Assembly: GCF_016026235.1 (NCBI RefSeq)
Contig: NZ_CP065613.1
Source: Escherichia coli
Lineage (GTDB): Bacteria; Pseudomonadota; Gammaproteobacteria; Enterobacterales; Enterobacteriaceae
Strand: one strand, 5' to 3'
DNA length: 64,000 bases
Each line of letters starts with the position of its first letter. Position 1 is the first letter of the stretch. Position numbers and translations under genes: made by a program. The notes below the pieces were generated by a model. That model was given only the letters and a program-made list of their open reading frames with translations. It was not told the DNA's origin and did not search any database. Below, in pieces: positions 13,114 to 38,960 of the stretch.

Positions 13114-13284
13114 AAATGTATCTACAATTATTCTGCAATTATAGCGTTGATGTTGGAAATAGCATCACGTTTCGAATAATCAACCATAAAATTGACAATG
13201 AGTAAGTTGGACTTGATTCATCCAATAGAATTTCTCGCCTGACATGGCACACTAAACACCTCGCTGTCGGGTAATGACTCCAAC

Positions 13285-13787
13285 TTACTGATAGTGTTTT
13301 ATGTTCAGATAATGCCCGATGACCTTGTCATGCAGCTCCACCGATTTTGAGAACGACAGTGACTTCCGTCCCAGCCTTGCCAGATGTTGTCTCAGATTCA
13401 GATTATGTCGCTCAATGCGCTGAGTGTAACGCTTGCTGATAACGTGCAGCTTTCCCTTCAGGCGTGATTCATACAGCGGCCAGCCATCCGTCATCTATAC
13501 TACGACCTCAAAGGCCGACAGCAGGCTCAGAAGACGCTCCAGTGTGGCCAGAGTGCGTTCACCGAAGACGTGGCCACAACCGTCCTCCGTATCCTGTCAT
13601 ACGCGTAAAACAGCCAGCGCTGACGTGATTTAGCACCGACGTAGCCCCAATGTTCGTCCATTTCAGCGCAGACAATCACATCACTGCCCGGTTGTATGCG
13701 CGAGGTTACCGACTGCGGCCTGAGTTTTTTAAGTGACGTAAAACCGTGTTGAGGCCAACGCCCATAATGCGTGCACTGGCGCGACAT
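13285..13787 (-). pseudogene. insB: IS1 insB', disrupted
   Basis: InsB-homologous frame split into 13527..13787 and 13285..13494 by a frameshift and an amber codon. Confidence 0.7.
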
Positions 13788-13981
13788 CCGACGCCATTCA
13801 TGGCCATATCAATGATTTTCTGGTGCGTACCGGGCTGAGAGGCGGTGTAAGTGAACTGCAGTTGCCATGTTTTACGGCAATGAGAGCAGAGATAGCGCTG
13901 ATGTCCGGCAGTGCTTTTGCCGTTACGCACCACGCCTTCAGTAGCGGAGCAGGAAGCACATCTGATGGAAATGGAAGCCAC
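13706..13981 (-). CDS. insA: IS1 InsA
   Basis: 91-aa [46 protein letters not shown]... (zinc finger plus HTH). Confidence 0.85.
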
Positions 13982-14295
13982 GCAAGCACCTTAAAATCAC
14001 CATCATACACTAAATCAGTAAGTTGGCAGCATTACCAAATTTTAATTACACTTAAGGTGTATATTTTCTATGCAAGCCATCAATTAAAGAGGTGTAATGT
14101 TCTGATGACTATTTGTAATCGTTATACATTCTGACCTGGAGTCAGAAGGTATTTCTCTGTCTGTGTATTCGCAGGCAGTGTGGTTGATTACATGAAATTC
14201 AGTACATTTGTCCTTCTCGCCTGCCTTTCGTCATTACCGACGGTATTGAATTTCGTTTTCCCCATTGGGGTTCTCCGGACAAGGAGTTGTTTGTT

Positions 14296-15528
14296 ATGCC
14301 ACGTTTTTTTGCCCGCCATGCCGCCACGCTGTTTTTCCCGATGGCGTTGATTTTGTATGACTTTGCTGCGTATCTGTCGACGGACCTGATCCAGCCAGGG
14401 ATCATTAATGTGGTCCGTGATTTTAATGCCGATGTCAGTCTGGCCCCGGCTGCCGTCAGTCTCTATCTCGCTGGAGGCATGGCATTGCAGTGGCTGCTGG
14501 GGCCGCTTTCCGACAGGGTTGGCCGCAGGCCGGTGCTGATTACCGGGGCGCTAATATTTACCCTTGCCTGCGCTGCGACAATGTTCACAACGTCTATGAC
14601 ACAGTTTCTTATCGCGCGTGCAATTCAGGGCACCAGTATCTGTTTTATTGCCACCGTTGGTTATGTCACGGTGCAGGAGGCGTTCGGACAGACAAAAGGG
14701 ATCAAGTTGATGGCGATTATCACCTCCATCGTACTGATTGCGCCGATTATTGGCCCGCTTTCCGGCGCAGCTCTGATGCACTTTGTGCACTGGAAAGTCC
14801 TTTTTGCCATCATTGCGGTTATGGGTTTTATCTCATTTGTTGGCTTACTGCTGGCGATGCCAGAGACGGTGAAGCGCGGCGCGGTTCCATTTAGCGCCAA
14901 AAGCGTCTTGCGCGATTTTCGTAATGTCTTTTGCAATCGGCTGTTCCTCTTTGGCGCAGCAACCATCTCTTTAAGCTATATCCCCATGATGAGTTGGGTG
15001 GCTGTCTCGCCGGTGATCCTGATCGACGCGGGCGGCTTAACAACTTCGCAGTTCGCCTGGACACAGGTTCCGGTGTTCGGCGCGGTGATTGTCGCGAATG
15101 CCATCGTGGCGCGTTTCGTTAAAGATCCGACCGAACCGCGCTTTATCTGGCGTGCCGTACCCCTTCAACTGGTTGGCCTCGCGCTGTTGATTATCGGCAA
15201 TCTGCTGTCACCGCACGTCTGGCTGTGGTCGGTGCTGGGCACCAGTCTGTATGCTTTCGGGATTGGTTTGATTTTCCCGACCTTATTCCGCTTTACGCTG
15301 TTTTCCAATAACTTACCGAAAGGGACCGTCTCCGCATCGCTGAATATGGTGATCCTGATGGTGATGTCTGTCTCGGTCGAAATCGGCCGCTGGCTGTGGT
15401 TTAACAGCGGTCGCTTGCCGTTTCATCTGTTAGCCGTTGTGGCAGGCGTTATCGTCGTTTTCACCCTGGCCGGATTGCTTAATCGCGTGCGCCAACATCA
15501 GGCTGCCGAGCTGGCGGAGGAGCGGTGA
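14296..15528 (+). CDS. mdtM: Multidrug efflux MFS transporter MdtM
   Basis: ORF recognised as MdtM/YjiO ([43 protein letters not shown]...); ORF track uses TTG 14287; IS1 end lies 260 bp upstream. Confidence 0.9.
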
Positions 15529-15568
15529 TTTTTGCGCGATCCTGCCGTCAGGCTCTATTCTTAACATT

Positions 15569-36926: not shown

Positions 36927-37015
36927 TGGAGCACCTCAAAAACACCATCATACACTAAATCAGTAAGTTGGCAGCATCACCAGACTCCTTGAGAGATTAT
37001 CTTTTATGTAAAATC

Positions 37016-37309
37016 TCAAATATCACCTGATGTAATGTCAATGATAATATTAAGTGCGCTCTGAACAACATCTTTCTTGGTGTGATTAACATCTGACAAA
37101 AAGAACATCAGCTTCTTTATTATGTTCTTGTTGTTTATTATTTCACGCTCACAGAATAAAGCGTTGACTGCCTCTTCTATGACATTTCTCTCGTAAAAAA
37201 ATTGAGAGTTAGCTTCATATAAAATATTGGCCAATTTTTCACCAAAAACCATATTATAATAATCACTGTGCATCTTTCTCCCCCAGGGTTCAGTCAATAA
37301 TTTTACCAT
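37016..37309 (-). CDS. Hypothetical 97-aa protein (orphan ORF in the AT-rich islet between two IS1 copies)
   Basis: ORF MVKLLTEPWGRKMHSDYYNMVFGEKLANILYEANSQFFYERNVIEEAVNALFCEREIINNKNIIKKLMFFLSDVNHTKKDVVQSALNIIIDITSGDI; no family recognised; weak ribosome-binding site; coding status uncertain. Confidence 0.3.
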   Translation of the reverse strand: MVKLLTEPWGRKMHSDYYNMVFGEKLANILYEANSQFFYERNVIEEAVNALFCEREIINNKNIIKKLMFFLSDVNHTKKDVVQSALNIIIDITSGDI

Positions 37310-38033
37310 GCCTAATTATGACAGGTGTAACAAGCATATTTTGCTATATAAATAAAATACATAATACTGATTATTGTAAGAACAGGAAGCAGACTAATGG
37401 TTTTTTTTGTGAGCACATTCCTTCTTATGTAGGAAGAGGCTGTATTATATTCAGTCAACTCTTTTTTACTAAAAACATTATCTATGCCATCAAAGTTGCC
37501 TGCTAGCTAATTTTTAGGATATCGCCTTGTCGTGGATTATGCACTCTAAACATGTAGAAGGTATTCATTATAAATACACAGACGGCCATCTTTTGTAAAA
37601 TGGATGCCGTTTTAAGTGAGATTCTGATTTTCAAATTGTTCCGGACTGAGACCGCCACACCAACTGTACCATCGCCAGCGATTGTAATCGCACTCGATAT
37701 AATTAAGTAAGTTTGCTGATTTTGCTGTTTACTGCGACAGATGTAAAGCTGTGGTGATTCATGCAGACTAAGTTCACGGACTCCGGCAGTAACACCGATG
37801 CATTCTGCAAGCTTCAGATCTTAACTACGAAATTCATGCGAATGGTGTTTACGTTTTTTTACTGGTTGAAACTGTTTTGTCTTGTGAGTCACCTCTGACT
37901 GAGAGTTTACTCACTTAGCCGCGTGTCCACTATTGCTGGGTAAGATCACAACACTTTAAAATGCCCTATATAGGGTTAACCAGTAATTATCTGTATGATA
38001 GCTTTGAGTTCGGGAGGAGGTAATGACTCCAAC

Positions 38034-38537
38034 TTACTGATAGTGTTTTATGTTCAGATAATGCCCGATGACCTTGTCATGCAACTCCACCGATTTTGAG
38101 AACGACAGTAACTTCCGTCCCAGCCTTGCCAGATGTTGTCTCAGATTCAGATTATGTCGCTCAATGCGCTGAGTGTAACGCTTGCTGATAACGTGCAGCT
38201 TTCCCTTCAGGCGTGATTCATACAGCGGCCAGCCATCCGTCATCTATACCACGACCTCAAAGGCCGACAGCAGGCTCAGAAGACGCTCCAGTGTGGCCAG
38301 AGTGCGTTCACCGAAGACGTGCGCCACAACCGTCCTCCGTATCCTGTCATACGCGTAAAACAGCCAGCGCTGACGTGATTTAGCACCGACGTAGCCCCAC
38401 TGTTCGTCCATTTCAGCGCAGACGATGACGTCACTGCCCGGCTGTATGCGCGAGGTTACCGACTGCGGCCTGAGTTTTTTAAGTGACGTAAAACCGTGTT
38501 GAGGCCAACGCCCATAATGCGTGCACTGGCGCGACAT
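38034..38537 (-). pseudogene. insB: IS1 insB' with in-frame amber codon
   Basis: ...FEVVV* followed by [10 protein letters not shown]...; canonical copy 2 reads [11 protein letters not shown] at the same place. Confidence 0.7.
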
Positions 38538-38731
38538 CCGACGCCATTCATGGCCATATCAATGATTTTCTGGTGCGTACCGGGCTGAGAGGCGGTGTAA
38601 GTGAACTGTAGTTGCCATGTTTTACGGCAATGAGAGCAGAGATAGCGCTGATGTCCGGCAGTGCTTTTGCCGTTACGCACCACGCCTTCAGTAGCGGAGC
38701 AGGAAGGACATCTGATGGAAATGGAAGCCAC
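38456..38731 (-). CDS. insA: IS1 InsA
   Basis: [43 protein letters not shown]... Confidence 0.85.
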
Positions 38732-38960
38732 GCAAGCACCTTAAAATCACCATCATACACTAAATCAGTAAGTTGGCAGCATTACCGAAATCCCCATCCT
38801 TTAGGGCAGTGAGGATGTCAATAATAGCAGACCACATCATGAGTCATTCTGACCGACACATGCCAGAAGCAGAGGCTCCATCCCATTTTATACCTACCTT
38901 ATAACACTTAGAAAAACAACATGTTAAAAATGTCTATTGGAAACAATTTTATTTCCAATT

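Follow-up and report, generated by a model that had tools for sequence, protein, structure and literature searches.

A 64,000-nucleotide stretch of an Escherichia coli chromosome (contig NZ_CP065613.1 of assembly GCF_016026235.1; hereafter the window) contains three copies of the insertion sequence (IS) IS1, two of which share an amber codon in the transposase gene. The window runs from tsr, btsT and yjiA to mdtM, through uxu, gntP and fimH to a truncated fimD, and on into the fec island. We consider it probable that copies 1 and 3 are relics of the isoform IS1F, inherited from an ancestor that was already defective, that copy 2 is a recent IS1A-like element marking a deletion, and that copies 2 and 3 later exchanged sequence by gene conversion. 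All three repeats are ordinary IS1 elements and not a new kind of element, and the shared amber codon is already known as a hallmark of IS1F and is not a novel variant.

Two IS1 lineages and a shared amber codon

A scan of the window for IS1 terminal repeats recovered six ends, all at the three positions listed in Table 1 and none elsewhere, against a chance expectation of 0. The copies, in each of which insA lies on the minus strand, have the size and ends of the IS1 family (~768 bp, with ~23-bp imperfect inverted repeats GGTRATG...CCAACTTAYTGAT); the lengths are 767 bp for copy 1 and 768 bp for each of the other two. They also have the coding organization of the family, with insA joined to insB' through a −1 frameshift at A6C and with the Zn_ribbon_InsA, HTH_Tnp_IS1 and DDE_Tnp_IS1 domains, and insA is intact in all three. 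Copies 1 and 3 differ from each other at 11 sites, whereas copy 2 differs from copy 1 at 62 and from copy 3 at 57. The positions of the three copies and their division into two sequence lineages, copies 1 and 3 against copy 2, had been proposed in an initial annotation of the window and both hold.

The InsAB' protein of each copy was translated with the normal −1 frameshift at A6C, and the limits of the DDE domain were taken from the Pfam domain coordinates. In copies 1 and 3 the frameshifted product ends ...AFEVVV* (W163*), directly before MTDGW; the codon is TAG (CTA on the plus strand), and copy 2 has TGG. The InsAB' of copy 2 is complete, with 232 residues and all three Pfam domains. The amber codon interrupts DDE_Tnp_IS1 at profile position 61 of 131 and would take away over half of the catalytic domain while leaving insA in place. 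Copy 1 has a second lesion, a 1-bp deletion that shifts the frame upstream of the amber codon. This deletion is not a sequencing error because the independent assembly of E. coli MS 21-1 has it at the same locus. Both lesions had been described in the initial annotation, and the truncation of InsB is borne out by the frameshifted translation, the deletion by its presence in MS 21-1. In both amber copies the ATG right after the stop opens a 69-codon open reading frame (ORF; 13285–13494 and 38034–38243, minus strand) corresponding to the latter half of the DDE domain.

The affiliation of copies 1 and 3 with IS1F is apparent over their whole length. The IS1F of K-12 MG1655 (4518472–4519239) lies beside ykiE-fecI, and its insB7, likewise with TAG at W163, carries a pseudogene annotation. 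Of 768 sites, 6 separate copy 3 from this element, and copy 1 has 9 differences from it; against IS1A the numbers are 67 for copy 3 and 72 for copy 1. Both therefore combine the features of the isoform, namely full-length near-identity to K-12 IS1F, ~9–10% divergence from IS1A and TAG at codon 163. The K-12 element (insA7/insB7 pseudogene, b4294/b4576) resembles both copies in its terminal repeats, its amber codon and its intact insA; its designation as 'type IV' IS1 goes back to Umeda and Ohtsubo (1991), cited in PMC12903888.

The two copies differ in their relation to the K-12 locus. Copy 3 has the same length as K-12 IS1F and the same position, next to ykiE-fecI with the left inverted repeat (IRL) facing fecI and with an identical flank (GAAATCCCCATCC...). 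This flank is common to K-12 IS1F and to the fec-locus IS1F copies of NCTC9040, F5505-C1, E8, MS15047, 2021CK-00607 and ST540, and with this shared flank and its sequence identity copy 3 is the orthologue of K-12 IS1F. RefSeq labels the fec-locus element 'IS1F family transposase, internal stop' in NCTC9040, E8, 2021CK-00607 and ST540. Copy 3 departs from the K-12 element in its neighbour on the side of the right inverted repeat (IRR), which is yjhU in K-12 and fec-island DNA in the window, and in a four-site IS1A-type patch. Copy 1, in contrast, occupies a paralogous locus between brnT and mdtM and has the additional 1-bp deletion. It is orthologous to an IS1 pseudogene between the same two genes in MS 21-1, to which window positions 1055–36218 align in one piece at 99.4% identity, including the element, both flanks and the deletion.

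To obtain population frequencies, each element was queried against 5,426 complete E. coli genomes together with the 400 bp adjoining either end. The arrangement of copy 1 with both flanks is present in ~18% of them and that of copy 3 in ~37% (counts in Table 1). Because both arrangements are widespread, copies 1 and 3 are old, inherited, orthologous relics and not recent insertions.

Strain 54214 was considered as a true empty site for copy 3 and was rejected, given that the last 5–7 bp of the IS1 end (TTACC) are kept there and point to a secondary deletion. In this strain (positions 2990–3000 of locus L010) the fec-locus IS1F is gone together with ~70 bp of its left flank, and the terminal TTACC scar shows its former presence.

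Of the six sites that distinguish copy 3 from K-12 IS1F, four fall within 19 bp (alignment columns 345–363), and at each of these four copy 3 has the IS1A-type base of copy 2. The patch was not found in eight other fec-locus IS1F copies. Over columns 179–395 copies 2 and 3 are identical bar one site, and they share a recombinant haplotype, IS1A-type at 345–363 and IS1F-type at 372, that is specific to this pair. The simplest reading would be one or two short conversion events between the two copies, which lie in direct orientation with 1,037 bp separating them. The exchange did not include the amber site: copy 2 retains TGG and copy 3 retains TAG. In the sequence of events that we propose, copies 2 and 3 would have swapped these short patches after the arrival of copy 2, and the amber site would have taken no part.

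Junctions, missing target duplications and the fim–fec deletion

No direct repeat of 7–14 bp flanks any of the three copies, the best match being 3 of 9 bases, and cross-pairing of flanks between copies gave nothing above 5 bp in common. An intact IS1F-type element within sctC of strain F2_81 served as a positive control, and there the same test recovered a perfect duplication of 9 bp (CGATTTTTT). Such a duplication records an insertion event and is no property of the IS1 element itself.

When the flanks are compared with K-12, MS 21-1, 54214 and F5505-C1, each copy is found to join DNA segments that are not adjacent elsewhere. At copy 1, the IRL terminus (window 14036/14037) is precisely where homology to K-12 restarts; on the opposite side, brnA-brnT and the IS take the place of the ~19 kb (rpnD, mcrBC, hsdRMS, mrr) that separate mdtM from yjiA in K-12. 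The fecI-side junction of copy 3 is universal, and its IRR side leads to yjhU in K-12 and, here and in most strains, to fec-island DNA (IS3 fragments and a YmgB/AriR-like gene). The left flank of copy 2 is the interior of fimD, and the DNA of its right flank runs leftwards into more fec-island DNA in 54214 and F5505-C1. These junctions emerge from the comparison of strains, and the established behaviour of IS1 suggests that they were left by IS1-associated adjacent deletion or by recombination between copies. One flank each of copies 1 and 3 would have been replaced later in this way, and their target duplications may be missing because of that replacement. The lack of duplications and the location of the copies at recombination or deletion junctions, both claimed in the initial annotation, thus stood up to the flank test with its control and to the strain comparison.

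The toxin–antitoxin pair brnA-brnT (12510–13113) is the sole content left between yjiA and copy 1. An IS1 composite transposon was considered for copies 2 and 3 (enclosing 1,037 bp) and for copies 1 and 2 (enclosing 22 kb of core genes); it was rejected, as no pairing has an outer duplication and the flanks are explained by ancestry and deletion.

Copy 2 differs from the other two in that its setting is apparently unique. It lies at fimD codon 479/480, with codons 1–479 missing and 1,200 nt kept in frame, and in MS 21-1 fimD continues uninterrupted past the position of this junction. Copy 2 together with both flanks is absent from all 5,426 genomes (four near matches have other breakpoints), as is its exact sequence, the best full-length match being 99.1%. 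Because no genome has its junctions or its exact sequence, copy 2 appears to mark a recent, strain-specific deletion junction. Its two flanks are tens of kb apart in other strains, so a recent IS1-mediated deletion would have removed fimB through the 5' half of fimD together with the DNA up to the fec island.

In its ends, its intact insA, its A6C site and its 232-aa InsAB', copy 2 resembles IS1A, the consensus K-12 IS1 (insA1-insB1). It differs from IS1A at 12 sites, 11 of which have the IS1F base (columns 196–293 and 372), and it is best described as an IS1A-like element with an intact frame and a unique mosaic sequence. The earlier description of copy 2 as canonical is accordingly right for its reading frames and too strong for its sequence, which lies 12 sites from K-12 IS1A and has no identical copy in the genomes searched. 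Copy 3 was examined as the source of the IS1F-like centre of copy 2 (columns 196–293), a proposal that is weakened by natural isoforms in strains Ec1120 and 504239, which have the same centre.

Comparable rearrangements are present in other strains. In NCTC9040, E8 and MS15047 an IS1 has independently joined fimD or fimC to the same fec-island edge, and in ST540 an IS3-family element forms such a junction. Across these four loci the junctions connect fimG, fimD or fimC to the YmgB/AriR-like edge, each with its own breakpoints and its own IS. The fim–fec interval therefore looks, from these genomes, like a recurrent deletion site at which type 1 fimbriae were lost repeatedly. In line with this, ISs are described as inactivating and deleting fim genes within the leuX-gntP island of Shigella and E. 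coli (PMC4374849). Those events resemble that of copy 2 in having IS1 in fimD with loss of upstream fim genes, within the same variable island that holds fec; the breakpoint between fimD 479/480 and the YmgB/AriR-like edge, however, matches none of the events described there and none in the four comparable E. coli strains.

Origin and spread of the amber codon

The amber allele and its intact counterpart are both common. An exact 62-mer on the IS1F background has TAG in 2,850 E. coli records and TGG in 4,231, and because of the latter number intact close relatives of the amber copies are abundant. The TAG form is also present in at least 39 plasmid records, including plasmids of Enterobacter, Klebsiella and E. 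fergusonii, although a few of these records are mislabelled chromosome pieces. A scan of 100,044 species-representative genomes with an amber 30-mer gave one match and nothing useful on spread. That match, the 547-bp contig00190 of the Archangium violaceum Cb vi76 draft (L017), is most likely E. coli contamination.

Several plasmids have mosaic copies. In pS65EC an internal IS1F segment with the amber codon lies between IS1A-type ends, in pAVS0051-A an IS1A-type 5' part is joined to an amber-bearing IS1F 3' part, and in pHNCF11W-130kb an IS1A-type patch lies within IS1F. From these mosaics we conclude that the amber segment moves between IS1 copies and lineages by homologous recombination.

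The shared stop codon of copies 1 and 3 would, in our preferred account, reflect descent from an IS1F that was already defective. Outside the small patch in copy 3, both copies are IS1F-type at all of the ~57–62 diagnostic sites and no tract boundary is visible; because they share these sites over their full length, common descent from an element that already had the amber codon fits better than a short conversion tract. Apart from a few private changes, copy 1 has the core haplotype that is commonest among amber copies and that also occurs at the fec locus of AR_0162, MS15047 and EC11, which fits such descent. Since the ancestor would already have been amber, a copy at a second locus could have arisen only if intact IS1 relatives provided transposase in trans, or if IS1–IS1 recombination moved the element passively. 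The two copies would then have become fixed at conserved loci, copy 3 at ykiE-fecI and copy 1 at the mdtM edge of the restriction (immigration-control) region.

Published experiments bear on the first of these routes. IS1 transposition was not detectable in a K-12 strain in which IS1B, C, D and F were the only copies left, and IS1F was immobile at native transposase levels (PMC12428005). K-12 IS1F was mobilised by InsAB' supplied in trans (PMC12903888), and when InsAB' was over-produced in trans IS1F made up 44% of new insertions, which the authors credit to its more symmetrical ends (PMC12428005, PMC12903888). The stop codon of IS1F is mentioned in neither report. Trans-mobilisation of IS1F thus seems experimentally plausible. 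Amber IS1F resembles miniIS1-like non-autonomous elements in having intact ends without a working transposase, and differs from them in being full length, in keeping insA, and in that no natural duplication-flanked amber copy was found among the contexts read.

Several observations weigh against inheritance from a single amber ancestor. Among IS1F-type copies, amber site 542 and sites 677/703 occur in all four combinations, so that the four-gamete test fails. The fec-locus IS1F of F5505-C1 (O25:H16; L004 9898–10665) has TGG, is otherwise identical to K-12 IS1F and is annotated with an intact transposase; it fits either a revertant or a copy that may have been repaired by conversion from one of the many IS1 copies of that strain. 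Because of these two findings, recombination or reversion at the amber site does occur, and one of copies 1 and 3 could have been converted over its full length. We also read 11 distinct amber contexts, comprising the two chromosomal loci, fec-linked plasmids and nine other plasmid contexts. None of the 11 has a target duplication that would mark transposition after the amber codon arose; this is a small sample, and it is uninformative given that IS1 copies often lack duplications in general, only 1 of 7 sampled intact copies having one.

The initial annotation had offered two explanations for the shared nonsense codon, a variant propagating through mobilisation in trans and gene conversion, and each survives in part. 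Conversion does occur, between copies 2 and 3 and in the plasmid mosaics, and it might have spread the amber codon itself if copies 1 and 3 had been inserted as intact IS1F-type elements and TAG had later been passed to one of them by its partner or by some third element. IS1–IS1 conversion is evident in the window, plasmids have the amber segment either enclosed by IS1A-type ends or making up the 3' half of an element, there is recombination between the amber site and sites 677/703, and an intact fec-locus allele exists in F5505-C1, all of which lend this account some credit. The absence of a tract boundary in copies 1 and 3 and the agreement of copy 1, over its whole length, with the commonest amber haplotype argue against it, and we regard it as unlikely, common descent being the better explanation of the amber codon in these two copies. 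Mobilisation in trans, for its part, is feasible in the K-12 experiments, and one could picture amber IS1F as a non-autonomous element that is propagating now, copied by transposase from copy 2 or from another intact IS1. Its symmetrical ends, its rank as the element mobilised most easily in trans in K-12 (PMC12903888) and the number of E. coli and plasmid records with the amber allele would suit such an element. The amber loci of the window are old, however, and shared with hundreds to thousands of genomes; neither amber copy has a duplication, nor does any of the contexts read, copy 1 has gained a further frameshift, and IS1F did not move at native transposase levels (PMC12428005). Ongoing propagation therefore appears improbable to us.

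Two further accounts concern the codon itself. Translation restarting at the ATG right after TAG, or readthrough of the stop, might leave the element able to transpose, through a protein in two halves or of full length, and the 69-codon ORF spans the half of the DDE domain that a restart would have to supply. Yet the K-12 strain keeping only IS1B, C, D and F had no detectable IS1 transposition (PMC12428005), and copy 1 is additionally frameshifted upstream, so that we consider a functional amber allele very improbable. Parallel TGG-to-TAG mutations would require one G-to-A transition each, and assemblers can collapse repeats; the same base on the same linked haplotype is nevertheless found in K-12 and in many independent complete assemblies, and MS 21-1 has the 1-bp deletion of copy 1 as well, which leaves independent mutation or artefact with next to no probability. 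Descent of copies 1 and 3 from an amber IS1F remains the account that we prefer.

A broader role may be proposed with considerable reserve. Amber IS1F could be a long-lived non-autonomous lineage that, with its InsA repressor and unusually symmetrical ends, borrows transposase and passes its defect to active IS1 copies by conversion, as in the plasmid mosaics, with a net damping of IS1 activity across E. coli populations. We think this rather doubtful.

Other features of the window and implications

Table 1 Features of the window, with positions, strands and occurrence in other genomes
Feature	Position	Strand	Occurrence
IS1 copy 1, IS1F-type, 767 bp, between brnT and mdtM, with 1-bp deletion and amber codon	13270..14036	-	Flanks and deletion identical in MS 21-1; 1,002/5,426 genomes
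insA of copy 1, intact 91-codon ORF, repressor/DNA-binding protein	13706..13981	-	
Amber TAG of copy 1, insB' frame, ATG directly after	13495..13497	-	
1-bp deletion site of copy 1 (GTGGC-CACG), between the two positions; frameshift upstream of amber codon	13572..13573	-	Common to MS 21-1
fimD 3' remnant, last 399 codons plus stop; codons 1–479 and all of fimC–fimB missing	35014..36213	-	
IS1 copy 2, intact IS1A-like mosaic, 232-aa InsAB', at fimD/fec-island deletion junction	36214..36981	-	Junctions in 0/5,426 genomes
TGG (W163) of copy 2, counterpart of the TAG codons of copies 1 and 3	36439..36441	-	
1,037-bp spacer between copies 2 and 3, left edge of fec island: YmgB/AriR-like gene and IS3-family fragments	36982..38018		
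IS1 copy 3, IS1F-type, 768 bp, orthologue of K-12 IS1F beside ykiE-fecI	38019..38786	-	~2,012/5,426 genomes
Amber TAG (W163*) of copy 3, identical to K-12 insB7	38244..38246	-	
Four-site IS1A-type patch of copy 3, columns 345, 357, 360 and 363; outer limits 38392–38504	38424..38442	-	Absent from eight other fec-locus IS1F copies
ykiE and fecI, conserved right-hand neighbours of copy 3, placing it at the K-12 IS1F locus	38818..39544		

Beyond the three IS1 copies, the window differs from strain 54214 in other mobile elements. A 1,291-bp insertion relative to 54214 (47363–48653), just downstream of fecE, has an IS4-family (IS10-like) transposase in two ORFs of 244 and 200 aa, and because the transposase is split it is probably another defective IS. 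At 49246/49247 the window is without the group II intron (ltrA) that 54214 has inside an IS3-family remnant (L010 12158–14427). An IS2 copy of 1,331 bp (60025–61355) lies 802 bp away from its position in 54214, with the flanking 802-bp block on the opposite side, which suggests an independent insertion or a local transposition. A cluster at ~50151–54048 is homologous to polysaccharide deacetylase, capU, virK and lpxM (msbB2-like) genes and lies here in the chromosomal fec island. The genes of this cluster are better known from virulence plasmids of Shigella and enteroaggregative E. coli.

For annotation, both amber copies deserve the label of IS1F relics and not the status of a new variant, a correction of little importance beyond that. 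The absent duplications are the expected signature of IS1-associated deletions at two regions of the E. coli chromosome already well known to be variable, the restriction region and the leuX-gntP island with fim and fec. What is modestly useful are the population frequencies of the relic loci, the fim deletion at copy 2, the patch shared by copies 2 and 3, and the amber mosaics on plasmids. Copy 2 records that type 1 fimbriae were lost recently, in an event specific to this strain, and junctions of this fim–fec type arose independently several times, each observation being of modest value. Of similar value is the indication that neighbouring IS1 copies of different lineages trade short patches, and the plasmid mosaics show that recombination can carry a loss-of-function allele from one copy of an insertion sequence to another.

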